Shown in pieces: positions 19,477-36,871 of a stretch of DNA of 64,000 nucleotides. Source of the DNA: Acidimicrobiia bacterium (GTDB taxonomy: Bacteria; Actinomycetota; Acidimicrobiia; Spongiisociales; ZC4RG35). The position numbers and the translations under genes were made by a program. The stretch covers positions 154,682 to 218,681 of the forward strand of contig JBGTHP010000025.1 of assembly GCA_041746105.1 (NCBI GenBank), in the 5' to 3' direction. Position 1 is the stretch's first letter. Each line of letters starts with the position of its first letter. The notes under the pieces were generated by a model. It saw only the letters and a program-made list of their open reading frames with translations. It was not told the DNA's origin and searched no databases.

Positions 19477-19487
19477 GGACGCGCCGG

Positions 19488-20636: not shown

Positions 20637-20669
20637 GGCTCTCCCGGGGTCGCTTTCACGTCGCTTGAA

Positions 20670-20683
20670 TACTGTATACAGAA
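20670..20683. promoter_or_regulatory. palindromic operator-like motif tACTGTATACAGaa (site 1 of 4) in the divergent promoter region between the FAD-oxidase gene and the GS-like/BMC operon
   Basis: Perfect 10-bp palindrome CTGTATACAG at 20672-20681. Related motifs at 34236, 36346 and 36858. Confidence 0.55.
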
Positions 20684-20722
20684 TAGCTAGGGTCGCGCCA
20701 GCACAACCGAGGAGGATCATTG

Positions 20723-22012
20723 ATGGCGGCGCTCGATGAGGGCATCACAACGGTGGTGATGGGGATTGGCGACCTCAACGGCATCCTCCGCGGCAAGCGC
20801 ATCCCGATCTCGCACTGGCCAACGATCCGCGAGGAGGGGATGGCGCTTTCCAACGCCATCTTCGCCATGGACATGAATTGTGACATCTGGGACACACCCT
20901 ACGCCAACATGGGGACCGGTTACCCCGATGTCAGGGTGTTCCCGCTTTCGGAGAAGCCCCACCTGATGCCCTGGGATCCCGGCGCGGCGTTTGTGATGGG
21001 AAGGGTCGAAAAAGAACACGGCGGCCCACTCGAGATCGACCCGCGCAACGCTTTGGTGAAGGTCACGGAGAAGGCCAGTTCCATGGGACTGAACGTACTG
21101 ATCGGGGCCGAGCTCGAGTTCTTTTTGCTCGATCCGGAAACCCTCCAACCCCGGGACAGCGGCATCCAGGTCTATGGGTTGGAGCGAGCGATGGAACTCG
21201 AACCCGTTCTGGGCCCGATTCGCGACCAGTTGGTGGCGGCGGGCATCCCGATCGAACAGTCCAATCCGGAATATGCTCCCGGCCAGGTCGAGGTGAACAT
21301 CCGGTACTCGGACGCCCTCGAAACCGCCGACAGGGTGGTGGCATTCCGTGGCATGGTCAAACAACTGGCCGTGACGCATGGGTATGTCGCCTCCTTCATG
21401 GCCAAACCGTTCTTCGAACACTCCGGAAACGGCTTCCATGTGCACCATTCGGCAACCGACGATTCGGGCAAGAATCTCTTTGCCTCGGGCGGCCATCTAT
21501 CGGACCTGGGGACGTCGTATCTCGCCGGGTTGCGCAAGCACATGATGGAACTGGCAGTGTTCTCGGCTCCCAACCCAAACGCCTACCGGCGCCGGCAGCC
21601 TTACACCTTTTGCCCGATCAACAACGCATGGGGAGTCGACAATCGTACGGTCGGCCTCCGGGTGATCGAAGGACCGGACAAGATCGTGCGTGTCGAGCAG
21701 CGAGACGCGTCAGCCGACGCCAACCCGTATCTTCTGCTCGCGGGCCAGATCGCCGCCGGTTTGGCCGGCATCGAGGGTGGCTGGGACCCGGGGCCGGCAG
21801 AGACAGGCGATGGATACGCCAACGAAGCTGCAGATCCGCTCCCGCTGGAGTTAGGCTCGGCTATCGCTCTCGCTCAAGACTCAAACCTGATCAAATCCGT
21901 GTTCGACCCTGATCTGTTGGGTATCTATCTCAGTCAGGCGGCGAGAGAGATCGAATTCATCGGTGCCCAGGTCACGCCGCTCGAGCGTGAACGTTATCTC
22001 CGGAGCTTCTGA
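20723..22012 (+). CDS. glutamine-synthetase-like gamma-glutamyl-amine ligase (GlnA3/GlnA4/PuuA/GmaS-like)
   Basis: GS catalytic motifs GAELEFFL, NPEYAPGQVEVN, SGNGFHVHHS, NPNAYRRR and NRTVGLRV. Approximately 430 aa. RBS GAGGAGGA 7 nt before the ATG. Confidence 0.85.
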   Translation: MAALDEGITTVVMGIGDLNGILRGKRIPISHWPTIREEGMALSNAIFAMDMNCDIWDTPYANMGTGYPDVRVFPLSEKPHLMPWDPGAAFVMGRVEKEHGGPLEIDPRNALVKVTEKASSMGLNVLIGAELEFFLLDPETLQPRDSGIQVYGLERAMELEPVLGPIRDQLVAAGIPIEQSNPEYAPGQVEVNIRYSDALETADRVVAFRGMVKQLAVTHGYVASFMAKPFFEHSGNGFHVHHSATDDSGKNLFASGGHLSDLGTSYLAGLRKHMMELAVFSAPNPNAYRRRQPYTFCPINNAWGVDNRTVGLRVIEGPDKIVRVEQRDASADANPYLLLAGQIAAGLAGIEGGWDPGPAETGDGYANEAADPLPLELGSAIALAQDSNLIKSVFDPDLLGIYLSQAAREIEFIGAQVTPLERERYLRSF

Positions 22013-22317
22013 TGAGATTGGCACGCGTCGTCGGTACGGTCACCGCAACCACCAAAGATCGGGCACTGGAAGGGCATCGGTTTCTGGTTGTCGACCTGGT
22101 CGACCCCGACGGTGTCGTCATCGACCCGCATCACGTTGCTGCGGATGCGGTAGGCGCCGGCACCGGCGACTTGGTCCTGGTGACTTCAGGGTCCTCGGCG
22201 AGGCAGGCACAGCGAACAGTCGCCCTTCCCGCGGATTTGGCCGTTGTCATGATCGTTGACGAGATCGCAATGAGCGGACAGGGTGAGGCTTTGTCCAAGC
22301 ACAAGAAAGGAAAATGA
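22012..22317 (+). CDS. bacterial microcompartment vertex protein BMC-P (EutN/CcmL/PduN family)
   Basis: MRLARVVGTVTATTKD...GHRFLVVDLVD...VAADAVGAGTGDLVLVTSGSSAR matches the EutN/PduN pattern. tgATG overlap with the upstream stop. Confidence 0.9.
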   Translation: MRLARVVGTVTATTKDRALEGHRFLVVDLVDPDGVVIDPHHVAADAVGAGTGDLVLVTSGSSARQAQRTVALPADLAVVMIVDEIAMSGQGEALSKHKKGK

Positions 22318-22320
22318 GTG

Positions 22321-22602
22321 ATGGCAGATCAGATTGCCCTGGGCATGATTGAGACGCGGGGGGTGGTGGCGTCGATCGAGGCCGCCGATGCGATGGTGAA
22401 AGCCGCAAACGTGGCACTCGTCGGGCAAGAAAAGGCGGGCGGCGGCCTGGTTGCCGTTTTTGTCCGCGGCGAAGTTGGAGCCGTCAAAGCGGCGGTGGAT
22501 GCCGGCGCAGTCGCTGCGAACAAGGTTGGCGAAGTGATAGCCGTTCACGTTATCCCGCGCCCGGCGACCGAGATCGAGGGCATCCTCCCTCAGACGTCTT
22601 GA
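22321..22602 (+). CDS. bacterial microcompartment shell hexamer protein BMC-H (PduA/EutM/CcmK-like)
   Basis: [58 protein letters not shown]...VHVIPRP is near-identical in pattern to PduA. Confidence 0.95.
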
Positions 22603-22610
22603 ACTGATCG

Positions 22611-23780
22611 ATGACGACCGCGGGTTTCCATGAGGCGGTTGCGGCGTTTTCTGCGCCGGTTTCGGCTCGCCCCGACCCCAGAACGCCGGCTCGGGTCACC
22701 GTGCTCGGCTCGGGGGTTGAGGGTCGCGCCCTCGCGGCATGGTTCCTGGCAGAAGGCGCAGACCAGGTCAGTCTCTTCTCGGTGTACCAAGATGAATTGA
22801 CGGCACTTGCCCGAGGATCGATCACTCTGCGCGGAGACGGGCCGGTGGGGACATTCCGAGTAGGGGGCGAGGCCCCGTCGATCGCGTCGACATCGGTTTT
22901 GGATCGGTCGGTGGAAGGTGCCGATCTGGTCGTGATTTCGGGCCCCGTGCTGAAACAACGGACCTATGGGCTGGTGGTCGCCCCTTACCTACACGACGGT
23001 CAAACAATCTTGGTGGTTCCTGGTCGGTCGCTGGCGGCCCTCGAACTCCTTCAATCGATCCGTGCCGGTGGCAGCACCGCCGATGTGCGCTTGGTGGAGG
23101 TCGATGATCTACCTTTTGACATCGGCGTCGATGGGTCGACTCTGACGTTGACCCGGCGCCGGACCGTCAGAGCCGGTGTCTACCCCGGCTCGGCCACATC
23201 GGTTCTAGAGGGTTTGCGTCGTTTTTTCCCGGAACTGGTTTCCGCCACGTCGGTCCTCGATTCGACCCTTGGCGACGGTTCGGGCATCGTCTCGATCCCG
23301 GCGCTCCTGGTGGGCGGACCCGGCGCACCACCCATCGAAAGTGCAGGACCTCCCGGTGCGGTGTTGCTGAACCCGAACACTTTCCGCGGGCTGATCGGGG
23401 ATGCCCAAATACAATTGGTGGCGGCGTTGGCAGACGAGCGCAGAGAAGTGGCGAGTCGCTTTGGGTTGCGTGCGCTCCCGAGCGACGAAGAATGGTTGGA
23501 TGCCGTGGCAGGCTCCACAGAGGGCACTGGAGTGCGAGCAGTCCCTGACGAAGCCACCGCCCGCAGTCTGCTTCGAGATGCGGTGCTCGGCTCCCTTGTC
23601 CCCTTGACGTCGATGGCGAACGCCGCCGGCGTCGCCGCCCCGGTCACGGAAGCCATGATCGAGTTGTCGGAGCGCGTTCTTGGGACCGCGCTGCGAGCCA
23701 GCGGCAGGAATCTGGATCTCTGCGGGCTAGGGGGCCTGAGTGCGCCCGAGATTCGGGCCCGGCTGGCGGTGGCGTCGTGA
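22611..23780 (+). CDS. NAD(P)-binding oxidoreductase, opine-dehydrogenase-like (Rossmann N-domain plus helical C-domain)
   Basis: VTVLGSGVEGRALAAWFLAEG dinucleotide motif resembles opine DH (VLGLGNGGHAFAAYLALKG). Approximately 389 aa. 8-nt gap after BMC-H. Family assignment is tentative. Confidence 0.5.
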   Translation: MTTAGFHEAVAAFSAPVSARPDPRTPARVTVLGSGVEGRALAAWFLAEGADQVSLFSVYQDELTALARGSITLRGDGPVGTFRVGGEAPSIASTSVLDRSVEGADLVVISGPVLKQRTYGLVVAPYLHDGQTILVVPGRSLAALELLQSIRAGGSTADVRLVEVDDLPFDIGVDGSTLTLTRRRTVRAGVYPGSATSVLEGLRRFFPELVSATSVLDSTLGDGSGIVSIPALLVGGPGAPPIESAGPPGAVLLNPNTFRGLIGDAQIQLVAALADERREVASRFGLRALPSDEEWLDAVAGSTEGTGVRAVPDEATARSLLRDAVLGSLVPLTSMANAAGVAAPVTEAMIELSERVLGTALRASGRNLDLCGLGGLSAPEIRARLAVAS

Positions 23781-25159
23781 CCGATGCCGACCTGAGAAGT
23801 ATCGCCCAGGCGCGGCGCGCAGTAGAGGCCGCCCATGTCGCCCAGCAGCGATTTCTTGCCACCGATCCGTCACGTATCGACGAGATCGTCGAGGCGATGG
23901 CGCGTGCGGTCGAGATCGACGCCGCCCGACTCGGCGCGCTCGCAGCCGAGGAGACCGGCTACGGCAACGCAGAGGACAAACGAATCAAGAACCTCTTCAA
24001 CTCGATCGGAGTCGCAGAGTGGCTGCGCAACGTCAAGACTCTTGGAGTCCTATGGCAAGACCCGGTTACAAAAGTGGTGGCGATAGGCGAACCGATGGGG
24101 GTAGTGGTCGCCCTAATCCCGGTAACCAACCCGACCTCGACCATCATCTTCAAAGTGCTGTCTGCGGTGAAAGCCGGCAATGCCATCGTGTGTGCACCAC
24201 ATCCACGCGGGGTCGGGTGCGGAATGGAAACCGTAAAAGTGATGATGACTGCGGCGGCCGAGCACGGGGCGCCGGACAACCTGATCCAATGTCTTTCCGA
24301 GGTGACCGTCGAGGGCACCCAGGAGCTGATGCGCCACCGCCGGACGTCGGTGGTCATGGCGACCGGGGGATCGGCGATGGTTCGAGCGGCCTATTCCTCC
24401 GGTAAACCGACCCTGGCGGTGGGCCCAGGGAACGTGCCCGTGTACGTCCATGCGTCGATGCGCGACGAGCTTCGCGAAGTCGCCGATCAAATCCTCACGT
24501 CCAAGTCGTTCGACTACGGCACGGCGTGCGCAGCGGAGCAGGCCGTGGTCGTCGACAGGGCCGTCGCCCCGCTGCTCGAACAGGAGGTCCGCCAATTGGG
24601 CGGCTACTTCTGCACGACGGGTGAGGCAGCCAGACTGGCCGATGTGATCTTTGACGACAACCAGGTGATCCGGCCTGGGGGAGTGGGGCAGTCGGCCTCC
24701 GAACTCTCTCGCAGGGCAGGTTTTGGAGTTCCCCCCAACACCCGTGTTCTCCTCGCCCGTGAGAGCGAGGTCGGACGAAACCGCCCACTCTCGCTCGAGA
24801 AACTGAATCCGGTGCTGGCCTGGTACGACGCCCCGAGTGAGGATCAGGCGTATGAACTGTGCTTCCAGATCTTGCGATTCGGCGGTAGGGGTCACACTTC
24901 GGCGATCCACACCAAAGATCCCGCCATTGTCGCCCGGTTTGGCCGCCTACCGGCAGGAAGGGTCCTGATCAACCAACCGGCGCTGATGGGGGCAATGGGA
25001 TACTCGGCCGACCTCGAACCGAGCTTCATGCTGGGCACGGGGACCGTATCTGGCTCGATCGTGTCAGACAATGTGACCGCCTTGCATCTGATCAACATCA
25101 AACGTGTCGCCTACGAGTCGAGACCGTGGCGCAGCATCTACGACGTATACGGAGCGTGA
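23777..25159 (+). CDS. CoA-acylating aldehyde dehydrogenase (EutE/PduP family)
   Basis: Approximately 460 aa with FDYGTACAAEQ active-site region (cf. FDNGxxCxSEQ). Lacks the ELGGKSP/GQxC motifs of hydrolytic ALDHs. Sits between shell genes. Confidence 0.85.
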   Translation: MTDADLRSIAQARRAVEAAHVAQQRFLATDPSRIDEIVEAMARAVEIDAARLGALAAEETGYGNAEDKRIKNLFNSIGVAEWLRNVKTLGVLWQDPVTKVVAIGEPMGVVVALIPVTNPTSTIIFKVLSAVKAGNAIVCAPHPRGVGCGMETVKVMMTAAAEHGAPDNLIQCLSEVTVEGTQELMRHRRTSVVMATGGSAMVRAAYSSGKPTLAVGPGNVPVYVHASMRDELREVADQILTSKSFDYGTACAAEQAVVVDRAVAPLLEQEVRQLGGYFCTTGEAARLADVIFDDNQVIRPGGVGQSASELSRRAGFGVPPNTRVLLARESEVGRNRPLSLEKLNPVLAWYDAPSEDQAYELCFQILRFGGRGHTSAIHTKDPAIVARFGRLPAGRVLINQPALMGAMGYSADLEPSFMLGTGTVSGSIVSDNVTALHLINIKRVAYESRPWRSIYDVYGA

Positions 25160-25161
25160 CC

Positions 25162-25791
25162 ATGAACCGACCTGGAACCGTGGTCAGAGCCCTGCTTCAG
25201 ATCGATCGACTTCAGCCAAAATTCGCCGCCTACAACGGTGCCACCGTTCAGGGGTCTATTCCCCTCGCCGGGGACACGATCCTCGTTGGCGAGATGGCGC
25301 CAGGCAACGAGGTGTTCAGATTGATCGACACCGCCTTGAAAGCAGCCACCATCGAGGCGACCAGCCAGATCGTGGAGCGCGAATTCGGGTTCTTCATCCT
25401 CCGATCACCCAGTAATGCGGAGATCAGCGCAGCCCGCGACGCGATTCTGGCCCATCTCGGGATCACGATGTCCGATCGGCTGAAACCGGTCGTGGAATCT
25501 ACCCAGATCATCACCTCGGTTGAGCCCTATCAGGCCCAACTTCTCAACAAATGGCGCAAAGGGTCCCTTCTGGTACCCGGCCAAACTCTCGGCATCGTCG
25601 AATGCGCTCCCGCTGCCTATATCTCGATAGCGGCCAACGAGGCCGAGAAGTCGGCCGATATCGACATCGTCGAGGTACGCGCGGTCGGCCGTTTCGGTCG
25701 ATTCTTCATGTCGGGATCGGAAGCGGCGGTTGAGACCGCAATGGAGGCGGCCGTCATCGCACTCCAAGCGGTAGAAGGAAGGGCCCAGTGA
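25162..25791 (+). CDS. tandem-domain BMC shell protein (BMC-T-like)
   Basis: Two approximately 90-aa BMC-like halves. The second half (TLGIVECAPAAYISIAANEAEKSADIDIVEV...GSEAAVETAMEAAV) is a clear BMC domain. Confidence 0.7.
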   Translation: MNRPGTVVRALLQIDRLQPKFAAYNGATVQGSIPLAGDTILVGEMAPGNEVFRLIDTALKAATIEATSQIVEREFGFFILRSPSNAEISAARDAILAHLGITMSDRLKPVVESTQIITSVEPYQAQLLNKWRKGSLLVPGQTLGIVECAPAAYISIAANEAEKSADIDIVEVRAVGRFGRFFMSGSEAAVETAMEAAVIALQAVEGRAQ

Positions 25792-26999
25792 CCTCTGGTC
25801 GACCGGTGATTCACCCCGGGGCCGGGGTGATCGGCGAGGTCGATGTGCTCGGCGCGTTCCGGCAGGGACGCCGTACGCTCCATGTCCAGCCAAGCGCCCT
25901 GGTCACCAATCAGGCGGCGGAGGCGGCTCAGCGGCTCGGTGTTTCCATTGTTGTGGGGGCTCCGACGGCGGCGGCAGTGCCCGCCACCGACGGGGCCGCG
26001 GTACTCCGCCGATCGCTTTACCGACGCAGCCCGAAGTTTGTACCGTCGGAAAAGCCCAGAGGCCTCCAACCATCGACGCTGGGACGACTCGTTATCGTGG
26101 GAGCGGGCGGTGTCGGATCCAATACGGCCCATCTGGCGGCTTCGCGCTCGCTTGCCCACGAGATCGTGCTCATCGACGTGGTTCCAGGATCGGCGGCCGC
26201 CACTGCCCTCGACCTCGAACATTCGGCCGGCATCACCGGTTCAACATCGCGTTTGAGTGGAGGAACCGACCTGGCGATGATCGAGGGGGCCGACGTCGTG
26301 GTCATAACCGCCGGTCGGCCCCGGTCCCCTGGCATGTCCAGAAGTGATCTGGTCGGGACCAATGGCAGGGTTGTACGCCAGGTGTCGGAACAAGTGGCGT
26401 CGGTTGCCCCGGGATCCGTCGTGATCGTTGTCACGAACCCACTAGACGAGATGACCGTGGAGGCGCTACGTGCAACCGGCTTTCCCAGAGAGCGCGTTCT
26501 GGGGATGGCGGGCACTCTCGACTCCGCACGATTCAGGTCGTCCTTGGCGAGAGCCGCCGGCGTTGACCCTGGCGATGTCGAGGCGATCACTCTGGGTAGC
26601 CATGGCGAGGAGATGGTCCCGATCATCAGCACCGCCACGGTACGCGGCCGTCCGCTTGACACGGTGCTGACTCCCGAGCAGATCGACCGCTGCGTCGCCG
26701 AAACCGTTGCGGGAGGTGGTCAAATCGTCGCGCTTCGCAAATCGGGCTCCGCAACCTTGGCTCCGGCCCACGCAACGCTCGAGGTTCTCGAGTCGATTCG
26801 AGGCGCCCGGGCGGGAGCCATCCCGGTTTCGATTCGCTTGGAAGGCGAATACGGGATCAGCGGCACGGTGGTGGGTGTTCCAACAATATTGGGCTCGGCC
26901 GGCGTGATCGAGATCGTCGAGTTGCCGCTGGCCTCAGGAGAAATGTCTGCACTGGCTCGCGCCGCGGCCGCCGTCGCCGCCCGAGTAGCCTCGGTCTGA
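25788..26999 (+). CDS. L-lactate/malate dehydrogenase-family oxidoreductase with approximately 95-aa N-terminal extension
   Basis: LVIVGAGGVGSNTAHL Rossmann, VVITAGRPRSPGMSRSDL and GSHGEEMVPI LDH/MDH motifs start at about aa 100. GTGA overlap with the BMC-T stop supports the long N-terminus. Confidence 0.8.
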   Translation: MTSGRPVIHPGAGVIGEVDVLGAFRQGRRTLHVQPSALVTNQAAEAAQRLGVSIVVGAPTAAAVPATDGAAVLRRSLYRRSPKFVPSEKPRGLQPSTLGRLVIVGAGGVGSNTAHLAASRSLAHEIVLIDVVPGSAAATALDLEHSAGITGSTSRLSGGTDLAMIEGADVVVITAGRPRSPGMSRSDLVGTNGRVVRQVSEQVASVAPGSVVIVVTNPLDEMTVEALRATGFPRERVLGMAGTLDSARFRSSLARAAGVDPGDVEAITLGSHGEEMVPIISTATVRGRPLDTVLTPEQIDRCVAETVAGGGQIVALRKSGSATLAPAHATLEVLESIRGARAGAIPVSIRLEGEYGISGTVVGVPTILGSAGVIEIVELPLASGEMSALARAAAAVAARVASV

Positions 27000-27526
27000 T
27001 GGGTTTCGAAGAAGTCGAGTTCGGGTCTCGCAAGGTTGTGGCCGTGAGCCGGCCTTCCAAGCCGCGTAAGCGTGAGGGCCGGGCAAGCACGCAGAAGCCC
27101 GATCCATCGGAGCCGCCGGCCGACACGGGAGCGGTCCTGGTTCCCCTTGATCAGTGGACGAGTATTCTCAACCAACTCGGAAACCTCCACCAGGCGGGTC
27201 AGCAGATGGCCGACGCCAGGGAACGGGCGGCGAAGGCCGAAACGGAAGCCTTTTTCCTCAAGGAGCGGCTGCGGGAATTACGAGAGGAACTTGCCAAGGC
27301 GAGAGCTGCGGCCACGGAATTCGTCAACAGCACCGCATCCGTCGACACCGAAGTGGCTCCAACCGACACCGGGGTCACTGCGACCGGCGATCCGGCAAGC
27401 GGCGCAAGCGAAATCGGCCAAGTCCAAGAAGACGAAGACGTCGCCATTGACCTCACCACCGACCGGGTGCTCATTGTCAGGCTTCCGAGCAGAGTCACCA
27501 AATGGTGGCTCGAGCGGCGGACCTGA
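26999..27526 (+). CDS. hypothetical coiled-coil protein
   Basis: ATGA overlap with the upstream stop. E/K/R-rich helical composition. An alternative-frame ORF (27072-27545) looks like an Arg-rich translation artefact. Confidence 0.45.
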   Translation: MGFEEVEFGSRKVVAVSRPSKPRKREGRASTQKPDPSEPPADTGAVLVPLDQWTSILNQLGNLHQAGQQMADARERAAKAETEAFFLKERLRELREELAKARAAATEFVNSTASVDTEVAPTDTGVTATGDPASGASEIGQVQEDEDVAIDLTTDRVLIVRLPSRVTKWWLERRT

Positions 27527-27545
27527 TGAGAAAGCCGACGGCGCT

Positions 27546-28457: not shown

Positions 28458-28488
28458 TCGGACTGCCGGTCCGATTGGGTCGGATTCG

Positions 28489-29658: not shown

Positions 29659-29673
29659 CAATCCGGGTCCTGG

Positions 29674-30105
29674 TTGAATCCGGGGATGACAACAAAACCG
29701 CGACTGGGTCACCAGCAGGCGAAGCTGATCGTGGACGAGATCGGAAAGCAGCTCGAGGCACATGACGAAGGGGCGGCCGTCGCCGTGGTCGACGATCACG
29801 GCGAGCTGATGGCATTCTTCCGGACGGACCGATGCCGGCTTCCGTCGATCCAGATCGCGATCAACAAGGCGTACGCCGCCGCCAGAGAACAAATCGAATC
29901 GGCCGAACTGGGAGCGCGCTCACGGGAGGAGGGCTGGCCGATGACCAACTTCGGTGATCTGCGGTATCCGAGCTGGGGCGGGGGTGTTCCGATCCGGATC
30001 GACGGGGTGGTGGTCGGTGCGGTAGGGGTGAGCGGGCTGGCAGAGGCCCGCGACATCGAGCTGGCGCGGGCCGGGGTGCGGGCAGGCGTCCGTGCCGACG
30101 GCTGA
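29674..30105 (+). CDS. GlcG/DUF336 heme-binding-like protein
   Basis: GAAVAVVDDHGELMAFFRTD...GGGVPIRIDGVVVGAVGVSG pattern of DUF336 (also found as the PduO C-terminal domain). Confidence 0.7.
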   Translation: MNPGMTTKPRLGHQQAKLIVDEIGKQLEAHDEGAAVAVVDDHGELMAFFRTDRCRLPSIQIAINKAYAAAREQIESAELGARSREEGWPMTNFGDLRYPSWGGGVPIRIDGVVVGAVGVSGLAEARDIELARAGVRAGVRADG

Positions 30106-30149
30106 CCGGATATACAGTTCTGCCACGGACCCGCAGGATCGTTTCGGAT

Positions 30150-30422
30150 GTGGTCGTAGGGCTGAGCGACTTCGAAGAGATCATCGCCGCACTGGACGGG
30201 GAAGCCTGGCATGGCACGGACGAGGACTATTTCATGGCGCTGATGATGCATGCGATTGACAAGTTGCCGGTTGCTCGAGTCGTCGAGCTGGGTGCCACCG
30301 TCTTAGAACAACACGACAACCACTGGGGCAAGCGAACGGCCGCAAACATTCTTCAAGAACTGGCCTGGGAAAGCCCAACCGAGCTCTCTCCGCCGCTCCT
30401 TCGAACTACATGTTGCAGTTGA
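30150..30422 (+). CDS. hypothetical small protein
   Basis: ORF only. No motif recognised. 3' end overlaps the convergent toxin gene. Confidence 0.3.
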   Translation: MVVGLSDFEEIIAALDGEAWHGTDEDYFMALMMHAIDKLPVARVVELGATVLEQHDNHWGKRTAANILQELAWESPTELSPPLLRTTCCS

Positions 30423-30735
30423 CGGCGACCGCCAAGGCCGCGCACACCGCCCGCATGCGCCCGTCACTCAACCTGCCGAGGCGTTCGGTCAGCGTTCCGA
30501 TCGAAACACTCTCCAGCGAGTCGAGATTGACAGCAGACTGGAGGGGGATCGGATCCTCTCCGGGCTCCAGCAGCACCTCGCTCGCAAGCCCGCGGATCGT
30601 TGTCGTGCATGGAGCGATCAGCGCTCTTCGAAGGCGGGGGATCGCCACGTCTCGAGAAAGAACCACCACTGGGCGACGACGGATGTCAGGCAACTCGCAC
30701 CACCACACCTCGCCCCTCGCCGGTAGATCCTTCAC
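30406..30735 (-). CDS. MazF/PemK-family toxin (mRNA interferase)
   Basis: [11 protein letters not shown]...RPVVVLSRD...[12 protein letters not shown] pattern. GTG start at 30735 gives a 4-nt overlap with the antitoxin stop. Confidence 0.7.
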
Positions 30736-30968
30736 GAAGAGGCTGCCGCCTCTCGAAACGACGCCAGGTCGCCCCATTCATCAATCTCATCGAGGGGACG
30801 TTCGTCGTAGGCGGCGTATCCGGCGTCGATCTCGGCTGCGCGATGTTTGGCTACCAATGCACCGAGAGCTTCATCGAGCAGGGCGGCGTCGTTCAGATCC
30901 GACCTCAGGTTCCTCGCGTTCTCCAAGAGCGACTCGTCTACCGTGGTGCTAACCCGTATGCGTGACAT
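30732..30968 (-). CDS. antitoxin (MazE/ribbon-helix-helix-like) of the adjacent toxin
   Basis: Small acidic ORF ([16 protein letters not shown]...) immediately upstream of and overlapping the toxin. Confidence 0.55.
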
Positions 30969-31179
30969 GGCATAACTATGCCACAATATGTGATCTTTTC
31001 AAGACCCCGGTCTGTCACGGCCTCGAAGCCCGCCCCGGCGGACGGCGACCAAGATCCTCCCAACAACCGAGGCGTGGAGCGGAACCTGAGTCTTCGGGTG
31101 AAGAACCCCACGAGTGTCAGCCGGGAATTCCACTCCGCCCACCAGGGACGGGTCGAACCAGCCGCGCAGGCGGCTACGG

Positions 31180-32601
31180 TCACCAGGTGAAGGGCCGGTC
31201 GATACCGGCCATCTTGACGCCGGTGAACGCGCTCGCCTCCAGGCTCAGTGCACGGAGATCCTCGACCTCGAGGTTGTGCACCGAACTTTTGCCGCAAGCC
31301 TTGGCCAGCAGCGTGATCTCCATCGTCATCGCCGTCAGGTAGCGAGCCACCCTTTCGGCCCCGGCTGCGACCTGCATGCGTTTCTCCAGCTCGGGGTCTT
31401 GTGTCGTGATTCCGACCGGACAGCGTCCGGTGTGACAGTGGTGACACTGCCCGGGAGCGGTACCCAACGCTTCGTAGTCGTCGAGATACCTTGGACTGTT
31501 GCACCCCAGTGCCATCAGAGCCGCGGTGCCGATCATGACACAGTCGGCGCCGAGGGCGAGAGCCTTGGCCGCATCAACACCGGAGCGGATTCCACCGGCG
31601 GCCACCAACTTGACCTCGTCGGCCATGCCGCAATCTTCCAGCGCCTGTCTGGCGGCTCTGATCGCGGACAGGGTGGGAATGCCGGTGTGGTCGAGCAGCA
31701 GTTCTGGTGAGGCGCCGGTCCCTCCCTCGGCCCCATCGACCACGATCACGTCGGCGCCGGCCTTGGCGGCGATGGCCACATCAAAACGAGGCCGGGTGGC
31801 CCCCATCTTGACAAACATCGGGATCTTGTAGTCGGTCGCCTCCCTCAGTTCCTCGATCTTCACCTGGAGATCGTCGGCGCCGAGAAAATCTGGGTGACGT
31901 ACGGTCGAACGTTGATCCACACCCAGCGGCAACGAACGCATCTTGGCCACTCGTTCAGAAACCTTCATCCCGAGCAGGATTCCACCGGTCCCCGGCTTGG
32001 CCCCCTGGCCAACGACTATCTCGATTGCGTCTGCCCTTCGCAGATGATCCAGGTCGAGCATGTAACGCGACGGGGTCATCTGGTAGACGAGTTTGTTGGA
32101 TGCCTCGCGTTCGTCTTCGAGCATCCCGCCCTCGCCGGTACACGTCATCGATCCGACCTTTGAGGCGCCGTATCCGAGGGCGGCCTTGGCCGACGCCGAG
32201 AGAGCGCCAAAAGACATCGATGCGATGTATATCGGGATCCCCAGGTCGAGTGGCTGTGAAACAAGACCCTTGCGGTCGCCGAGGACTGTGCGGGTGTCAC
32301 AGCTCTCTCGGTATCCTTCGAGAGGGAGTCGAGTCATCGAAGCCGGAACAAAAACGAGGTCGTCAAAGGTGGGAAAACTCTTGTTTGCGGTGGTGAAACC
32401 ACGAATCTGATAGCGGCCGAGCCTCGACAGTGCGTGGACCTCCGATATCGACTCCGGGGTCCACCGGATCGACTTTCCTGGTGCGTACGAGGATGGGACC
32501 CCGGCCGGGCGCCCGCCGATTCCGCCGTCGGTCATCGCCACCGCGTCTTCGTCTGGCATCGGGAATGGGTACTGGTACCCCTGGGTCAGATCATCAGCCA
32601 T
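31180..32601 (-). CDS. glutamate-synthase-family FMN-binding protein (GltB domain 2-like; MgsC-like)
   Basis: Glu_synthase FMN/Fe-S domain (GGTGASP, CxxGxC cluster region). Approximately 473 aa. Confidence 0.85.
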   Translation of the reverse strand: MADDLTQGYQYPFPMPDEDAVAMTDGGIGGRPAGVPSSYAPGKSIRWTPESISEVHALSRLGRYQIRGFTTANKSFPTFDDLVFVPASMTRLPLEGYRESCDTRTVLGDRKGLVSQPLDLGIPIYIASMSFGALSASAKAALGYGASKVGSMTCTGEGGMLEDEREASNKLVYQMTPSRYMLDLDHLRRADAIEIVVGQGAKPGTGGILLGMKVSERVAKMRSLPLGVDQRSTVRHPDFLGADDLQVKIEELREATDYKIPMFVKMGATRPRFDVAIAAKAGADVIVVDGAEGGTGASPELLLDHTGIPTLSAIRAARQALEDCGMADEVKLVAAGGIRSGVDAAKALALGADCVMIGTAALMALGCNSPRYLDDYEALGTAPGQCHHCHTGRCPVGITTQDPELEKRMQVAAGAERVARYLTAMTMEITLLAKACGKSSVHNLEVEDLRALSLEASAFTGVKMAGIDRPFTW

Positions 32602-33278
32602 GCGCTCGCATCCCTACTCTCGAAGTGCCACAACCGTTGCCCCGACACGATTTTCTTCCAGTCGAACGAACCCGTTATGTCGAGGCCGGCCAGCAGCTGG
32701 GATACGTCGGCAACCTCTTCTGCCGTCGGCTCGACGACATCCGTATCCACGCCGAGAGACTTGATCGGCCCTGCCACCCACACCTCGCCACCCCACAACG
32801 AATCACCGCACGCGTCCTCTGTGCCCTCGAGGGCGATGATGCGACCGGCGTGGGCCATGAACCCCGTCAAAAACCCGACCTTCCCCTCCACGACGATGTC
32901 GCCGCCCTTCATTGCCACACCGCAGCGGGGTCCGGCGTCGCCTTTGACATGGATCAGTCCGCCCCGCATGGAGGCGCCAACGCTCATCCCTGCGTACCCG
33001 TCCACGGTGACGGATCCCTTGGCCATGGCCTCACCGGTACCCCAGCCGGCGTTGCGGGTGACCCTGATCGTCGCCCCGTTGTTGAGGCCGCCGCAGTAAT
33101 AACCGACCGAACCGTCGAAGAGGATGTCGGCGCCTTCCGGCAGCGCAACCCCGAGGTTGTGTCGCGAGAGGGTGTCGCGAACCATGACCCGTTCACCTTC
33201 TGCGATTGCCATACGGATCTCGGCGTTCACCTCTCGGATCGGCCTGTCGCCGACAACCACCTCCACGCGATCGGTCAT
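32586..33278 (-). CDS. glutamate synthase GXGXG-domain protein (MgsB-like)
   Basis: Repeated GxGxG beta-helix motifs (GDAGPRCGVAMKGGDIVVEG). Confidence 0.8.
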   Translation of the reverse strand: MTDRVEVVVGDRPIREVNAEIRMAIAEGERVMVRDTLSRHNLGVALPEGADILFDGSVGYYCGGLNNGATIRVTRNAGWGTGEAMAKGSVTVDGYAGMSVGASMRGGLIHVKGDAGPRCGVAMKGGDIVVEGKVGFLTGFMAHAGRIIALEGTEDACGDSLWGGEVWVAGPIKSLGVDTDVVEPTAEEVADVSQLLAGLDITGSFDWKKIVSGQRLWHFESRDASAWLMI

Positions 33279-34219
33279 ACGCCGACTCCCACCCCGGTGT
33301 GGTAGATGTGGCTTTCGAGAGGCCCGTCGTAATTGATGACCGACACTTCATCCCGGTAGATCTTTCGGATCGCCTGTTCTTCTGTTGCGATGGCGACATT
33401 GCCGTCCGCCTCATCGACGACGACGAGCGGCTTGATGGCGAATCGATCCTTGGCGAAACCGACCATGTCCTCGGTTGACAGGATGTAGGTGAAACATCCG
33501 TCGAGCGCCGACTTGGACATCTCCAATGACTCGGTCAGTGAATTCCCTGCCGCCATCTGATCCGAAAGCCAGACCGCAATGACCTCGGAGTCGTTTTGGG
33601 TCTTGAAGTCATAACCCTTCCGTTTCAGGCGATCGGTGAGGAGGTAATAGTTGGTCAATTGGCCGTTGTGGACGATGGCGATGTCTGGATAGGGGCGCGC
33701 CCAGAACGGATGGGAGGCGGTGGGGGATACGAAGGACTCTGTGGCCATTCTGGCGTTGCCAACACCGTGAGTTCCCCGAAAGTCCCGTACCCCATGTTTG
33801 TCGGCTACCTCGTAGGCATCTCCGAGGTCCTTGATGATTTCGAGGGATCGACCAACCGATTGCAGCTCGAGGCCAGGGATGTGGTCTGCTTCGGCCAACC
33901 AGCGTTCTAGCCCGCTCTCGGGGTCGCCAACGATTGCCCTGATCGACACGTGACGTTGATTCAGCGAATCCCACGTCGGGTCTTCGAGGAAATCGGAGCC
34001 GTGTTCGCGGCTTACGGCGAGAAAGGTGTCCAACACCGAGGAGATGTCAGAGCGATCGGCGGCCACCGCTCTGATGACATAACCAGACTCACGCCTCGGC
34101 CCGTAGAGACCGAATCCGGTGGAATCGGCGCCACGATGGCGCTGGGCCTGCATCATTTCGACGAGGTCTTGTCCCAGTGATCCATCTAGGGAGCAGATTC
34201 TGGCGGCTATTCCGCACAT
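33275..34219 (-). CDS. class-II glutamine amidotransferase (GltB N-terminal domain-like; MgsA-like)
   Basis: MCGIAARI N-terminal nucleophile Cys. True start taken at the internal M (34219) so that Cys is residue 2. Confidence 0.85.
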   Translation of the reverse strand: MCGIAARICSLDGSLGQDLVEMMQAQRHRGADSTGFGLYGPRRESGYVIRAVAADRSDISSVLDTFLAVSREHGSDFLEDPTWDSLNQRHVSIRAIVGDPESGLERWLAEADHIPGLELQSVGRSLEIIKDLGDAYEVADKHGVRDFRGTHGVGNARMATESFVSPTASHPFWARPYPDIAIVHNGQLTNYYLLTDRLKRKGYDFKTQNDSEVIAVWLSDQMAAGNSLTESLEMSKSALDGCFTYILSTEDMVGFAKDRFAIKPLVVVDEADGNVAIATEEQAIRKIYRDEVSVINYDGPLESHIYHTGVGVGV

Positions 34220-34235
34220 TCCAACCTCCGGTGTG

Positions 34236-34249
34236 TACTGAATACAGTA
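34236..34249. promoter_or_regulatory. palindromic operator-like motif TACTGAATACAGTA (site 2) upstream of the split glutamate-synthase-like operon
   Basis: 5-bp inverted arms TACTG/CAGTA with AATA spacer, 17-20 nt upstream of the corrected start. Confidence 0.5.
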
Positions 34250-34278
34250 TACCATCTGCCTTGGCCACCGCGGAAGCC

Positions 34279-34881
34279 CTAGACGGCGAGGAGGTGGTCG
34301 AGAAGCTCGAGATGGTCGCGGGCTTCTGCAGGTTTGATCGGAATCGAGTAGGGCGGCATCGGAGGGAAATACACCGCGGTGATGGTGCCGGGAAGCGGAG
34401 TGATCACGATGCGCCGGCCACCCTGGTCGCTTTCGACAACGATCGACTTCAGTTCGGAACGGCCTGCAAGCCTTGTCGTGGTCTCGTCCGACAACCGCGC
34501 CCCGAGTCCGTCGTCGAGGCCCTTCTTGCGAACGAATCGTTTCTTGTCGAAGCGATATTCAAACCGGCTCGGGTCGGGACCGAGGGTCCCCGTGATCCCA
34601 ACCCATTGGGTGTCGATCAGTGCGCCGAACATCCGGTATCGCCCATGAAACCCGACTTCAATCGTGCGATCGGTCAGTTCGACCCTGGCCGACTGGAAAA
34701 GCGTGTCATCGATGTCGACTGCTTCGCCAAAACGTTGCAGCAGGGCGGCGGTCGGAACCTCCATCAACGTCTGGCGGCGCTGTCGATATAGCCGGCGCGC
34801 CCGTCGGCGCAGGCTCAGCGGGATGGAGCCGGTCTTGCGACCGGCTCCATCTGGCAAAACCTCGTCTCCGCTCGAGGTCAT
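34279..34881 (-). CDS. hypothetical protein, translationally coupled to the upstream permease
   Basis: ATGA overlap with the permease stop. No confident family. Confidence 0.5.
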   Translation of the reverse strand: MTSSGDEVLPDGAGRKTGSIPLSLRRRARRLYRQRRQTLMEVPTAALLQRFGEAVDIDDTLFQSARVELTDRTIEVGFHGRYRMFGALIDTQWVGITGTLGPDPSRFEYRFDKKRFVRKKGLDDGLGARLSDETTTRLAGRSELKSIVVESDQGGRRIVITPLPGTITAVYFPPMPPYSIPIKPAEARDHLELLDHLLAV

Positions 34882-36293
34882 ATCTTCTGTTCCACCTCTT
34901 CGCTGAGATGGTCTACGACGCCAGAGCTCGATCGCAGGAGCCAGCAGAGCACCGCGCCGACGAAGGATCCGCCCACCATCCACAAGGCCCTCCGGCCGAA
35001 GAAGGCGTGACCGTCGGAGACGGGGAGGAAGGCATTCCACCAGACATACAGCGTCATCGCAAGACCGAGCGCCGGTACCACCAGCGGGAGTTTGAATGGC
35101 CTATCCACACTCGAATTGGTGAACCGGGAGACGATCACCAAGACGTGGTAGACGGCATAGAGCAGGATCCAGGTGTAGGCCGCCGTGAATATCTGCTCGA
35201 TCACGCCGCCGTAGGCGATCGCAACCCAGGTGTAGACCACTGCGGTGACGATTGTCGCCACCCAGGGCGTCCGGTAGCGCGGATGGATATGGCCGAATAC
35301 TCTGGACAGGGGTCCAAAGAAGTGGCCGTTACGTGCGATCCCGTAGATGATGCGAGGCATTGCTGCATAAACGATGGTCATCGAGGCGAAGGTCGCCAGC
35401 ACCGAGGCCAGAGCCATCAGGACCCGGCCGCTGCTGCCAAACATCGCGATTCCGACATCGAGTTGGGGAGCGTCCTCGGACACCTGTGAGATCCAGTCGG
35501 CATTGATTCCGCTGACACCAAGCCCCATGAACAACGACGTAGCGAGGATGGCAAAAATGCCGTACACGATCCCTCGCGGGATCGACCGGGTCGGGTCCTT
35601 GGTCTCCTCGGCCAACGGGGCGACAAACTCGATACCGACGAAACTCCAGAAGGCAAAACCGCCGGTCAGTGCCAACAATCCGGCGTAGCCCCCGAAATCA
35701 GGGATGGCTGCCGGAACCGCAGACCATGACCAGCTTCCGAGGTCGGAGAAACCACCAAACGCCGCTGCTCCGAAAAACCAGCGGATGCCGAGCATGCCGA
35801 CGAGCAACGTCAGTTCGAGGCGCGCCAGGGCTTCGATTCCGATCAGGTTGGGAACCACCGCCAGGATGGTGAGGATGACGATCCACATCGACACCGACCC
35901 CGCATTGAAGAGTCCCTGCGCGCCAAACGCGCCGGCGGTGGTCTCTCCGCCACCGGCGAAGGCGAACATCACATAAAACAGAAAGCCGAGGAACACCCCG
36001 ACGATCGTTTTTCCGGCCTGACCTCCCGGAGTTGCAGCGGCCCCGTAGTCGTATAGGGCCCCGGCCTTGGGGTAAGTCGTGGAGAGTTCGGCCGCCGACA
36101 GGCCCAACAACAGGTTGAGCACTGCCGAGGCGACCAGCGCCAGGGCAAAAGTCCTTCCGCCAAGGAACCAGCCTTGGAAGTCGGACACCAGGGTGCTGGC
36201 GGCGACCACAAGGCCGACTCCAGCCGCAAAGATGTCCCACGTTCCGAGTGCCTTGACCAGGCTCTCGGATTGCTCGATGTCTACTTTTGCCAT
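34878..36293 (-). CDS. APC-superfamily amino acid/amine permease
   Basis: Approximately 12 predicted transmembrane segments. Typical APC N-terminal region. Confidence 0.85.
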   Translation of the reverse strand: MAKVDIEQSESLVKALGTWDIFAAGVGLVVAASTLVSDFQGWFLGGRTFALALVASAVLNLLLGLSAAELSTTYPKAGALYDYGAAATPGGQAGKTIVGVFLGFLFYVMFAFAGGGETTAGAFGAQGLFNAGSVSMWIVILTILAVVPNLIGIEALARLELTLLVGMLGIRWFFGAAAFGGFSDLGSWSWSAVPAAIPDFGGYAGLLALTGGFAFWSFVGIEFVAPLAEETKDPTRSIPRGIVYGIFAILATSLFMGLGVSGINADWISQVSEDAPQLDVGIAMFGSSGRVLMALASVLATFASMTIVYAAMPRIIYGIARNGHFFGPLSRVFGHIHPRYRTPWVATIVTAVVYTWVAIAYGGVIEQIFTAAYTWILLYAVYHVLVIVSRFTNSSVDRPFKLPLVVPALGLAMTLYVWWNAFLPVSDGHAFFGRRALWMVGGSFVGAVLCWLLRSSSGVVDHLSEEVEQKI

Positions 36294-36345
36294 GCCTCCT
36301 CCTCGTTTGGCCGGCGTCCAGTTTGTTTCTCTCCACCAAACTGAA

Positions 36346-36359
36346 TCCTGTATACAGTC
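36346..36359. promoter_or_regulatory. palindromic operator-like motif tCCTGTATACAGtc (site 3) upstream of the APC permease
   Basis: Same 10-bp palindrome CTGTATACAG as site 1, preceded by ACTGAAT. Confidence 0.5.
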
Positions 36360-36425
36360 GGTAAAGTTAGCCGGTCGCCGAACGCGAGGTCGGCCAAATC
36401 GGGCATCTTCTGGCGAACGGGCGGC

Positions 36426-36821
36426 TCAGAGAATGCTGGAGATTATGGCGTCGACTTCAACCTCGACCACCATGCCAGGTGTGGTGAGGCCAACGGCAAC
36501 ACCGGTGGTCACGGGGCGTATCCCGGCAAAAACCTCTCCGTGGGCCCGGATGGCGTCGTTGGAGACCGCCATGTCGGAGAAGTAGAGACGGGTACGGACC
36601 ACATCGCCGAGAGCGGCGCCGACGTCGGCGAGAGCCTTGGCGACACGAGCGAAGGCATAGATGGTTTGGGCGTACCCGTCCCAGGGTGCATGCAATTTGC
36701 CAGAGGGTTCGATCGCGGTGGTGCCGGCAACAAAAACAAAGGCACCCACTCGTTTGACCCTTGCGTACGAGCCGATCTCTTCGAACCGGCCGCCGCCACC
36801 GACGGTCTGAATCTCCACCAT
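36426..36821 (-). CDS. RidA/YjgF-family deaminase
   Basis: AGTTAIEPSGK...YFSDMA...VTTGVAVGLTTPGMVVEVEVDA pattern. Confidence 0.8.
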   Translation of the reverse strand: MVEIQTVGGGGRFEEIGSYARVKRVGAFVFVAGTTAIEPSGKLHAPWDGYAQTIYAFARVAKALADVGAALGDVVRTRLYFSDMAVSNDAIRAHGEVFAGIRPVTTGVAVGLTTPGMVVEVEVDAIISSIL

Positions 36822-36852
36822 CGTGGTTACGTTAGTGACGGTTAGTCTTACT

Positions 36853-36871
36853 CTGCATACTGAATGCAGAA
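36853..36871. promoter_or_regulatory. operator-like inverted repeat CTGCAT-actga-ATGCAG / TACTGAATGCAGAA (site 4) in the RidA-GntR divergent promoter region
   Basis: 6-bp inverted arms. Differs from site 2 by one base. Confidence 0.5.

Follow-up and report, generated by a model that had tools for sequence, protein, structure and literature searches.

Four copies of a palindromic element in the window (the whole 64-kb stretch of DNA analysed here) are very probably, at roughly 85%, operators of the GntR/FCD regulator encoded at 36907-37602, as judged by comparative sequence analysis. Operator and regulator together are predicted to constitute a cross-phylum regulon of the MIC2 microcompartment locus, not an island-specific one. 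The gene island is laid out as follows.

19488-20636, - strand: FAD oxidoreductase of the DAO family (PF01266), predicted target
20723-26999, + strand: core MIC2 operon, predicted target (Pfam, ORF translation, NCBIfam and the MIC2 description in the PMC8217296 supplement), comprising the next seven genes
20723-22012, + strand: GS-like protein
22012-22317, + strand: BMC-P
22318-22602, + strand: BMC-H
22611-23780, + strand: 6PGDH/octopine-DH-like protein
23777-25159, + strand: acylating aldehyde dehydrogenase
25126-25791, + strand: BMC-T
25788-26999, + strand: MDH/LDH-like protein with N-terminal extension
31180-34219, - strand: split glutamate-synthase-like (GltB-like) operon, predicted target (Pfam), comprising the next three genes
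33275-34219, - strand: GATase
32586-33278, - strand: GXGXG
31180-32601, - strand: Glu_synthase
34279-36293, - strand: APC-family permease and 200-aa protein, predicted target (Pfam, L002 gene list)
34878-36293, - strand: APC permease (Pfam)
34279-34881, - strand: 200-aa protein with a weak DUF3156 match
36426-36821, - strand: RidA, enamine/imine deaminase family (PF01042), divergent from the GntR gene, predicted target
36907-37602, + strand: GntR-family regulator with FCD effector domain (PF00392, PF07729), the proposed binder

The MIC2 transcript may extend over the co-directional genes up to 30105. The DAO oxidase resembles monomeric sarcosine oxidase and N-methyltryptophan oxidase, and its score of 183 bits against the NCBIfam N-methyl-L-tryptophan oxidase model lies under the model cut-off. 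The split GltB-like operon resembles the three-subunit N-methylglutamate synthase.

Four candidate operators in the window

The sequence-only reading had reported four palindromes in the 5' non-coding DNA of island genes. All four sequences were found where it had placed them, each just upstream of a start codon.

20666-20687: candidate operator 1, TGAATACTGTATACAGAATAGC, between the divergently transcribed DAO oxidase (start 20636, - strand) and GS-like/BMC operon (start 20723), which are 86 bp apart
34232-34253: candidate operator 2, TGTGTACTGAATACAGTATACC, upstream of the GATase gene of the split GltB-like operon (start codon 34219, - strand)
36342-36363: candidate operator 3, TGAATCCTGTATACAGTCGGTA, preceding the APC permease start (36293, - strand) by 48 nt
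36854-36875: candidate operator 4, TGCATACTGAATGCAGAATGCG, at the centre of the 85-bp divergent region between RidA (36821, - strand) and the GntR gene (36907); putative autoregulatory site

Operator 2 is separated by 12 nt from the GATase start codon (the protein's N-terminus reads MCGI) and lies 25 nt past the stop codon of the gene for the 200-aa protein, the one after the permease gene.

A scan of the 64-kb window located CTGWATRCAG at 20672, 34238, 36348 and 36860 only. These four places give six strand matches against 0.12 +/- 0.36 expected from 100 dinucleotide shuffles, none of which reached six (0/100). With a position weight matrix (PWM) derived from orthologous sites, the window sites scored 26.5, 27.9, 20.8 and 21.6 (operators 1 to 4), their 7-bp-shifted shadows 14-16, and the best unrelated match in the window 8.8. 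The 15-bp skeleton TGnATnCnGnATnCA had three exact matches in the window (0.045 expected), and with one mismatch allowed, six of its seven matches fell inside the four sites. A fifth copy is thus absent from the 64 kb, in agreement with the earlier observation by eye that other intergenic regions lack the motif.

The 14-mer consensus proposed earlier was right in its core, which recurs at all four places, and too short in its extent. The full element is a 22-bp palindrome, TGnATACTGTATACAGTATnCA, in which 8-bp boxes resembling TGTATACA repeat every 7 bp and so overlap. Two boxes, forming the 15-bp palindrome TGwATAC-n-GTATwCA, are the minimum present in all sites found, and three boxes give the 22-mer, so that element length ranges from 15 to 22 bp.

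Conservation across Acidimicrobiia and distant loci

Seven related Acidimicrobiia genomes carry regulators with 59-86% identity. In the four intergenic alignments (A1-A4, one for each operator in order; A1 includes L090, L089, L010 and L009) mean column identity is only 44-65%, and the motif forms the main invariant block. In one relative (L094) the BMC operon lies on the other side of the regulator, and four sites still occupy the four promoters. In another locus (L007) a ydhR-like gene is inserted between RidA and GntR, and the site still adjoins the GntR gene. The synteny of the split GltB-like operon is kept in nearly all related loci. This retention at all four orthologous promoters supports the proposal of the sequence-only reading that the regulator would control its own gene, the BMC operon, the permease and the GltB-like genes.

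A second set of ~60 distant loci, mostly Pseudomonadota-like by source names and with a GC content of 40-69%, carries the motif at matching promoter classes: oxidase/GS-like, split GltB-like, regulator gene and transporter. The oxidase/GS-like divergent pair with an operator between its genes was found in 33 loci, and the operator 1 position is filled in 38 unique regions, most from distant loci. Orthologous GATase-upstream sites occur in 24 loci, with the motif centre at a median of 34 nt from the start codon. RidA is a constant cluster member in other phyla. The transporter is non-orthologous across lineages while the motif is kept: an APC permease is the target here, and the equivalent of operator 3 in distant loci lies upstream of an ABC transporter (Peripla_BP_6 or ABC permease).

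The 1.04 Mb of DNA fetched contained 90 strong sites (PWM >= 20), all of them at promoters of the cluster: 73 stand no more than 400 bp upstream of a mapped cluster gene, and the other 17 precede the transporter gene that follows RidA. Regulator ortholog and motif occur together in 27 of the 28 ortholog-carrying loci, and in the single exception the sites score slightly below threshold. The motif is absent from homologous GS/GltB-like loci with no regulator ortholog in range, and it was not found in the oxidase/GS-like region of one MIC2-type locus (L036).

The candidate regulator and its homolog Atu1419

The product of 36907-37602 was correctly placed in the FadR subfamily by the sequence-only reading, as PF00392 and the FCD domain PF07729 were both found. 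It is assigned to the Zn-type FCD GntR proteins, in the VanR-like group. Its closest PDB homolog is 6Z74, Atu1419, with a similarity that is modest overall (E 8e-19). The recognition helix SRTPVREAL is identical in the two proteins; R49, T50 and R53 align with the Atu1419 DNA-contact residues (Arg/Thr/Arg), and N134, H138, H184 and H206 with its Zn ligands (Asn and three His). The recognition-helix and Zn-site residues are invariant in 26 regulator orthologs. Since this helix sequence is common in GntR proteins that bind other operators, its identity is suggestive and not proof.

Atu1419 of Agrobacterium fabrum (PDB 6Z74 and related entries) is an FCD-type GntR repressor of the VanR group; its binding site is ATGTATACAT, where Arg45 recognizes an essential G (PMC7797058). 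Its targets are its own gene and nearby catabolic genes, which it represses from palindromes that overlap the -10 box or sit between -10 and -35 (PMC7797058). Its site and the island operators have the TGTATACA core in common. This core and the co-occurrence of orthologs and motif (27/28) favour the adjacent GntR protein as the binder, as the sequence-only reading had suggested. The arrangement differs: Atu1419 binds isolated 10-bp palindromes separated by 109-190 bp and loops the DNA as a tetramer (PMC7797058), whereas each island site consists of two or three boxes that overlap at a 7-bp spacing. The Atu1419 regulon, hydroxycinnamate degradation, is a different one, and the Atu1419 effector is methylene-tetrahydrofolate (PMC7797058).

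Promoter geometry and alternative readings

Around operator 1, conserved elements outline one putative promoter.

20665-20693, + strand: putative GS-like/BMC promoter, TTGAAT (20665-20670), 17 nt, TAGGGT (20688-20693), enclosing operator 1

In alignment A1, TTGA(A/G)T and TA(G/T)GGT are invariant at fixed spacing. An E. coli-type promoter scan, applied to this Acidimicrobiia host, returned nothing at any of the four window sites, so promoter overlap in the window is inferred from conserved TANNNT-like and TTG-like elements only. Distant oxidase/GS-like regions show TTGnnn-17-TACTGT on one strand and TTGnnn-17-TACAGT on the other, which places both predicted -10 boxes inside the operator; the 17-bp spacing is exact in 21/36 and 27/36 unique regions on the two strands.

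The regulator might bind these sites as an activator or in a dual role, since dual roles are known for some FCD and GntR proteins. We consider this unlikely. Operator 2 stands only 12 nt before its start codon, operators 1 and 4 occupy the centre of their 85-86-bp divergent regions, and the operator covers the predicted -10 boxes in distant loci; such positions are typical of repression and count against activation. The closest characterised homolog, Atu1419, is moreover a repressor (PMC7797058).

The geometry in distant loci also suggests that the palindrome could be promoter DNA alone, created by overlapping divergent promoters with TACTGT and TACAGT as -10 boxes; TANNNT hexamers do occur in nearly all sites. 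One element can be promoter and operator at once, which leaves only the version without an operator as a true rival. The -10 boxes themselves could account for part of the core conservation in distant loci. As a full explanation, promoter DNA alone is improbable. Conservation spans 15-22 bp, well beyond the requirement of a -10 hexamer, and the motif also occurs at the one-directional GATase and permease promoters, where the geometry is different. In Acidimicrobiia the likely -10 lies outside the core. The motif also tracks one regulator family, and the motif core coincides with the site determined experimentally for the closest solved member of that family (PMC7797058).

Equally improbable is recognition by a different protein, for instance a global regulator of nitrogen or stress responses or a LexA-like one, the latter considered because of the CTG...CAG look of the motif. 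The E. coli SOS box is TACTG(TA)5CAGTA, to which TACTGTATACAGTA is superficially similar, but the spacing is CTG-N4-CAG here and CTG-N10-CAG in the SOS box. The targets are one catabolic cluster, not DNA-repair genes, with zero strong sites outside it in 1.04 Mb. The motif always accompanies the GntR ortholog, a site lies directly upstream of the GntR gene itself, and the locus gene lists examined contain no second regulator gene within the cluster.

A transcribed palindrome could also fold as a 5'-leader RNA hairpin (attenuator or stability element), a reading with almost no remaining likelihood: complementarity does not exceed chance at positions 3/20 (17/50 against 0.32 expected) and 6/17 (22/50 against 0.54), symmetric variable positions do not covary, the AT-rich stems have no T-tract after them, the sites serve divergent genes on both strands, and Rfam has no match in 19000-39000.

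Relation to known systems

By gene content, the island is assigned to the MIC2 microcompartment type of the Sutter et al. 2021 catalog, as described in the MIC2 passages of its supplement (PMC8217296). Both have an aldehyde dehydrogenase, a PF02866 MDH/LDH with N-terminal extension, a 6PGDH-like protein, a PF00120 GS-like protein and BMC-H, BMC-P and BMC-T. These passages report MIC2 hosts in Proteobacteria and two Actinobacteria and do not state a function; the terms 'GntR' and 'glutamate synthase' are absent from the catalog text and supplements searched (PMC8217296). To the MIC2 functional unit the regulon would add the oxidase, the split GltB-like genes, RidA and the transporter.

N-methylglutamate clusters (gmaS, mgsABC) likewise combine a GS-like enzyme with a three-subunit GltB-like enzyme. 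The Ruegeria pomeroyi cluster includes TmoR, a GntR-family repressor, but TmoR acts on tmm only, and the activator of the gmaS-mgs operon is TmaR, of the AraC type; no shared motif is described there (PMC13390433). The oxidase of the island is single-subunit and sarcosine-oxidase-like, whereas the R. pomeroyi cluster has a four-gene mgdABCD operon (PMC13390433).

The island sites resemble the classical operators of FadR-subfamily GntR proteins in type and placement. These operators, such as ATACTTGTATACAAGTAT of the Bacillus subtilis gnt operon and the PdhR, LldR and UxuR/ExuR boxes, are short AT-rich palindromes with a GT...AC core, located in the promoters of the regulator gene and of the catabolic operon beside it; repression there is lifted by a pathway metabolite. 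They differ from the island sites in exact sequence and in box phasing, which is 7 bp at the island sites. CsiR, PdhR, LldR, NanR, UxuR and GlcC were rejected as identities for the regulator, whose scores with these NCBIfam equivalog models fall far under the cut-offs; it is thus not an ortholog of those classical regulators.

Proposed regulation and its significance

For the repressor model we infer binding, sign of regulation, effector and the number of protein dimers per site. When no inducer is present, the regulator would occupy the box arrays through its winged helix-turn-helix, with R49 of the recognition helix predicted, from Atu1419, to read the G of each half-box. The arrays appear to lie on or between core promoter elements of four transcription units, so the bound regulator would block RNA polymerase. 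The units controlled would be the oxidase with the GS-like/microcompartment operon (one common site), the split GltB-like operon, the permease, and RidA with the regulator gene (one common site). Given this overlap, inducer-relieved repression is the likely mechanism: a small molecule in the Zn-containing FCD domain, probably a carboxylate intermediate of the pathway or a downstream product, would release the regulator and switch on the whole pathway together.

In distant genomes, most of them Pseudomonadota-like, the same pair would also control the orthologous MIC2 clusters. It would likewise control related GltB-like/GS-like clusters without a microcompartment. The value of the predicted regulon is that it would tie an amine-pathway module and a transporter to MIC2. 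A regulator-and-site pair common to several phyla would thereby offer a practical route to the function of MIC2 clusters.

A palindromic element recurs at four promoters of the island

The island genes proposed by the sequence-only reading were borne out by Pfam, and the four palindromes it had quoted were all recovered at their positions in 5' non-coding DNA. The genes and the four 22-bp sites are listed below.

Island genes and candidate operators (window coordinates)
19488-20636, minus strand: DAO-family FAD oxidoreductase (Pfam)
20666-20687: site 1, within the 86-bp divergent oxidase/GS-like region
20723-22012, plus strand: GS-like protein, Gln-synt_C (PF00120)
22012-22317, plus strand: BMC-P (PF03319)
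22318-22602, plus strand: BMC-H (ORF)
22611-23780, plus strand: octopine-DH/6PGDH-like protein, weak Octopine_DH match (6PGDH-like fold)
23777-25159, plus strand: aldehyde dehydrogenase (Aldedh)
25126-25791, plus strand: BMC-T (PF00936)
25788-26999, plus strand: LDH/MDH-like protein, Ldh_1_N from residue 100 of 403, N-terminal extension of ~100 aa
After the LDH/MDH-like gene, up to 30105, plus strand: further co-directional genes
31180-34219, minus strand: split GltB-like genes, namely GATase (product begins MCGI), GXGXG and Glu_synthase
34232-34253: site 2, its end 12 nt ahead of the GATase start codon
34279-34881, minus strand: 200-aa protein
34878-36293, minus strand: APC permease
36342-36363: site 3, 48 nt ahead of the permease start codon
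36426-36821, minus strand: RidA
36854-36875: site 4, in the middle of the 85-bp divergent RidA/GntR region
36907-37602, plus strand: GntR + FCD regulator

The core CTGWATRCAG occurs in the whole window only at 20672, 34238, 36348 and 36860. Dinucleotide shuffles of this 61%-GC sequence gave 0.12 matches by chance, and none of them reached the observed count. The skeleton TGnATnCnGnATnCA had three exact matches against 0.045 expected. A relaxed 12-mer search that allowed three mismatches was uninformative, with 7 hits where 5.35 were expected. A position weight matrix (PWM) made from the orthologous sites and then run on the window scored sites 1-4 at 20.8-27.9, their own 7-bp-shifted shadows at 14-16 and the next unrelated sequence at 8.8. 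The window therefore holds no fifth copy, as had been judged by eye. The sequence TGGTTTCTGCATACA at 1559-1573, one mismatch from the 15-mer skeleton, lies inside an ORF (1420-2583) and was taken as a chance match.

Two other features of the island were recorded. A PemK/MazF-type toxin gene with a small upstream ORF (30406-30968, minus strand), likely a toxin-antitoxin pair, lies between the end of the BMC operon and the Glu_synthase gene and is absent from the gene lists of the orthologous loci L003 and L004. Directly after the GntR gene, a P450 and an aldehyde dehydrogenase are encoded on the minus strand (37603-40280), with no site nearby.

The element is an array of 8-bp boxes

A symmetrised count matrix of 77 unique sites showed that 22 bp carry information: TGnATACTGTATACAGTATnCA. 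Some lineages have a reduced version of 15 bp, for example the perfect palindrome TGAATACTGTATTCA in L009-L011 and TGAATACAGTATACA at a number of distant loci. The arrangement is best read as two or three TGTATACA-like boxes of 8 bp, each sharing 1 nt with the next, which sets a 7-bp phase. The central box is the best box at all four window sites (TGTATACA twice, TGAATACA and TGAATGCA).

A palindrome of this kind could also act as an RNA hairpin. However, complementarity at the variable symmetric positions was not above the chance expectation, and an Rfam search of window positions 19000-39000 at E values up to 1 matched no RNA family, which argues for a protein reading DNA and against structured RNA. 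The gammaproteobacterial SOS box bound by LexA, CTG-N10-CAG upstream of DNA-repair genes, can be dismissed because the spacing here is CTG-N4-CAG and the targets are all catabolic or transport genes.

Orthologous promoters in Acidimicrobiia relatives carry the element

Regulator orthologs were taken from the protein database and from metagenome contigs. In Acidimicrobiia relatives, the same gene neighbourhood was found on contigs with regulators 59-86% identical, and the orthologous promoters carry the motif. In alignments of the four intergenic regions, where mean column identity is 44-65%, the motif is the main invariant block. At one of these loci (L007), a ydhR-like gene (9593-9883) separates RidA from GntR, yet the site is still directly upstream of GntR, which supports autoregulation. 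At another (L094), the BMC operon lies on the opposite side of the regulator gene and four sites occupy the same four promoters. The orthologous BMC-T proteins combine CsoS1D_N and BMC domains. A scan of genome contigs with the regulator protein returned only a 29%-identical Paracoccaceae relative, in which the motif is absent.

L007 also contains a weaker site (TGTATTCAGTACACA, 16457-16478, PWM 17) some 60 nt ahead of a MerR-family gene, at a distance of 6 kb from the cluster, which may represent either an additional target of the regulator or chance. In L006 (2686-3744), a DDE_3 transposase splits the CN_hydrolase gene of the orthologous cluster in two.

The same predicted regulon recurs across phyla

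A search of metagenomes with the GS-like protein gave 80 loci (56-68% identity, GC content 40%-69%), and mapping the window proteins onto them revealed one cluster in about 60. It comprises the regulator, the split GltB-like genes, RidA and an oxidase divergent from the GS-like gene, which is followed by shell genes, the 6PGDH-like gene, aldehyde dehydrogenase, BMC-T and the MDH-like gene. Homologs of the regulator and of the GS-like protein carry mostly Pseudomonadota names (Alpha- and Gammaproteobacteria), which are those of the homologs and not of these contigs.

At these distant loci, the motif occupies the divergent oxidase/GS-like region, precedes GATase (often where GATase and the regulator gene diverge), adjoins the regulator gene or RidA and, past RidA, precedes a Peripla_BP_6 or permease/ATPase gene of an ABC transporter (Pfam). 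The window has an APC permease at the last of these positions, so the transporter target is non-orthologous between lineages while the motif is kept. At PWM scores of at least 20, 90 sites were found in 1.04 Mb: 73 precede a mapped cluster gene by no more than 400 bp, 17 belong to the transporter class, and none occurs elsewhere. A site accompanies the regulator ortholog in 27 of 28 loci, and the sites of the exception fall just under the threshold. Loci with GS/GltB-like genes and no regulator in range have no motif, and it is also absent from L036, a MIC2-type locus (MIC2 being a microcompartment locus type in the catalog PMC8217296).

In L021 (12791) and L029 (13467), the motif separates the gene of a DAO-type oxidase from that of a non-BMC-type aldehyde dehydrogenase. 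These two clusters lack microcompartment genes, which suggests that the regulator also acts on a form of the pathway that has no shell.

The GntR/GATase intergenic region of the distant loci often holds an extra, weaker site. In L059, L064, L073 and L077, this is a two-box site on the GntR side, with about 60 bp between it and the main GATase operator. Such second sites recall the paired palindromes used for DNA looping by the tetramer of Atu1419, an Agrobacterium fabrum repressor.

The regulator is a predicted zinc-binding FCD repressor

The regulator consists of an N-terminal winged helix-turn-helix of the GntR type (PF00392, E 1.6e-18, residues 14-75) and a C-terminal, all-helical FCD effector domain (PF07729, E 6.8e-25, residues 87-207). 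No NCBIfam equivalog model names it. Its closest solved homolog is Atu1419 (PDB 6Z74, E 8e-19), a VanR-group FCD repressor that binds ATGTATACAT, reads an essential G with Arg45 and holds zinc through Asn137, His141, His192 and His214 (PMC7797058). Aligned pairwise, the two proteins share the recognition helix SRTPVREAL, and R49, T50 and R53 of the regulator correspond to Arg45, Thr46 and Arg49 of Atu1419. Likewise, N134, H138, H184 and H206 align with the four zinc ligands, so that the Asn/Asp + 3 His metal site of the Zn-binding FCD group is predicted to be present. The predicted DNA-contacting residues of the recognition helix and the predicted zinc ligands are invariant among 26 orthologs (40-100% identity).

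Boxes of the TGTATACA type, palindromes with the GT...AC core typical of GntR/FCD operators, stand at four promoters including the regulator's own. While Atu1419 uses single 10-bp palindromes, the candidate sites of the regulator are 7-bp-phased box arrays, a less common detail of this regulation.

Operator positions fit repression by promoter occlusion

The oxidase/GS-like regions of the distant loci are stereotyped, with CTTGC and GCAAG boxes on either side of the operator. They read TTGnnn-17-TACTGT rightward and TTGnnn-17-TACAGT leftward, and the exact 17-bp spacing holds on the two strands in 21/36 and 27/36 unique regions. With such boxes running both ways, there appear to be two fully overlapping divergent promoters whose -10 boxes both lie inside the operator core, a second less common detail. 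At the GATase promoters, a TTGCnn box precedes the operator by 5-6 nt and a TAC(A/T)GT hexamer falls within it, with the start codon about 20-25 nt further on.

Around operator 1, the window and its relatives share invariant TTGA(A/G)T and TA(G/T)GGT elements at a 17-nt spacing, and operator 2 contains a TGGTATACT element. An E. coli-type promoter scan of positions 20000-38000 called nothing at the four sites, so the placement of the window promoters is inferred from the conserved TTGAAT/TAGGGT-like elements. The palindromes of Atu1419 lie over the -10 box or between the -10 and -35 boxes (PMC7797058). The operator positions here fit repression by promoter occlusion, the mechanism of Atu1419; as in the family generally, an effector bound to the FCD domain would then release the regulator. 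The regulation itself is ordinary, a predicted local GntR-type repressor with a palindromic operator.

Cultured carriers and published systems

Two cultured bacteria carry a regulator-motif pair. In Hoeflea poritis, the GntR gene is divergent from the GltB-like genes. In Mesorhizobium loti NZP2037, plasmid pML2037 (L092) encodes a 42%-identical GntR homolog in a related but different cluster, with a GS-family protein, an APC permease, a P450 and a gamma-glutamyl hydrolase. Exact matches to the 15-mer skeleton precede its own GntR gene and separate the P450 gene from the hydrolase gene (14901 and 27825). L092 was treated as a related regulon and not as an ortholog, and its sites suggest a sister regulon for another gamma-glutamylation pathway.

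In the literature searched, the operator string was found only in primers and never in this context, and no account of this regulon came up in searches linking microcompartments to N-methylglutamate, gamma-glutamyl or GntR. In methylamine clusters, the AraC-type TmaR activates gmaS-mgs and the GntR-type TmoR acts only on tmm; both were rejected as counterparts because they belong to different systems. An FCD-type GntR repressor, as predicted here, with a TGTATACA-type operator is thus of a known kind, and its regulon is new to the searched literature.

The regulon as a candidate front end of the MIC2 pathway

The island matches MIC2. Its shell comprises BMC-H, BMC-P and a double-domain BMC-T, and its enzymes are an aldehyde dehydrogenase, a PF02866 MDH/LDH, a 6PGDH-like protein and a PF00120 GS-like protein. 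In the passages of the catalog supplement consulted, the MIC2 definition comprises these four enzymes, with an N-terminal extension of ~70 aa or more on the MDH/LDH; the type counts 22 loci, found in Proteobacteria and in two Actinobacteria, and is assigned no function there (PMC8217296). The catalog places it among the types without an obvious signature enzyme, and neither 'GntR' nor 'glutamate synthase' was found in the portions of text and supplements searched (PMC8217296).

Among the regulator and pathway enzymes, only an MDH subfamily model scored above the NCBIfam cut-off. Below it, the nearest likenesses are to N-methyltryptophan oxidase and monomeric sarcosine oxidase for the oxidase, and to acylating EutE-type enzymes for the aldehyde dehydrogenase. 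With the GS-like enzyme, the split GltB-like enzyme and RidA also in the regulon, these family similarities and the co-regulation suggest a possible route from amine to gamma-glutamyl amide, N-alkyl-glutamate and aldehyde, and then into the microcompartment.

We tentatively propose, with a probability of roughly 0.4, that the operator-defined regulon is the missing front end of the MIC2 pathway, an N-methylglutamate-type route governed by a regulator acting on 7-bp-phased arrays. A primary amine would be imported by the transporter and joined to glutamate by the GS-like enzyme; the split GltB-like enzyme would convert the product to an N-alkyl-glutamate, from which the sarcosine-oxidase-like enzyme, helped by RidA, would free an aldehyde for the acylating aldehyde dehydrogenase of the microcompartment. 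The regulator would sense a pathway carboxylate or downstream product, and its binding mode on box arrays would differ from that described for the single 10-bp palindromes of Atu1419.

Independent evidence that the oxidase, both the GS-like and split GltB-like enzymes, RidA and the transporter act in concert with the shell and its aldehyde dehydrogenase comes from the operator they have in common. Such co-regulation extends across phyla, even with an unrelated replacement transporter, and points to an amine that enters by way of gamma-glutamyl and N-alkyl-glutamate intermediates. The regulon delimits the functional unit of MIC2 across phyla, and in the cultured carriers these promoters could be used as reporters to find the inducer, and hence the MIC2 substrate.
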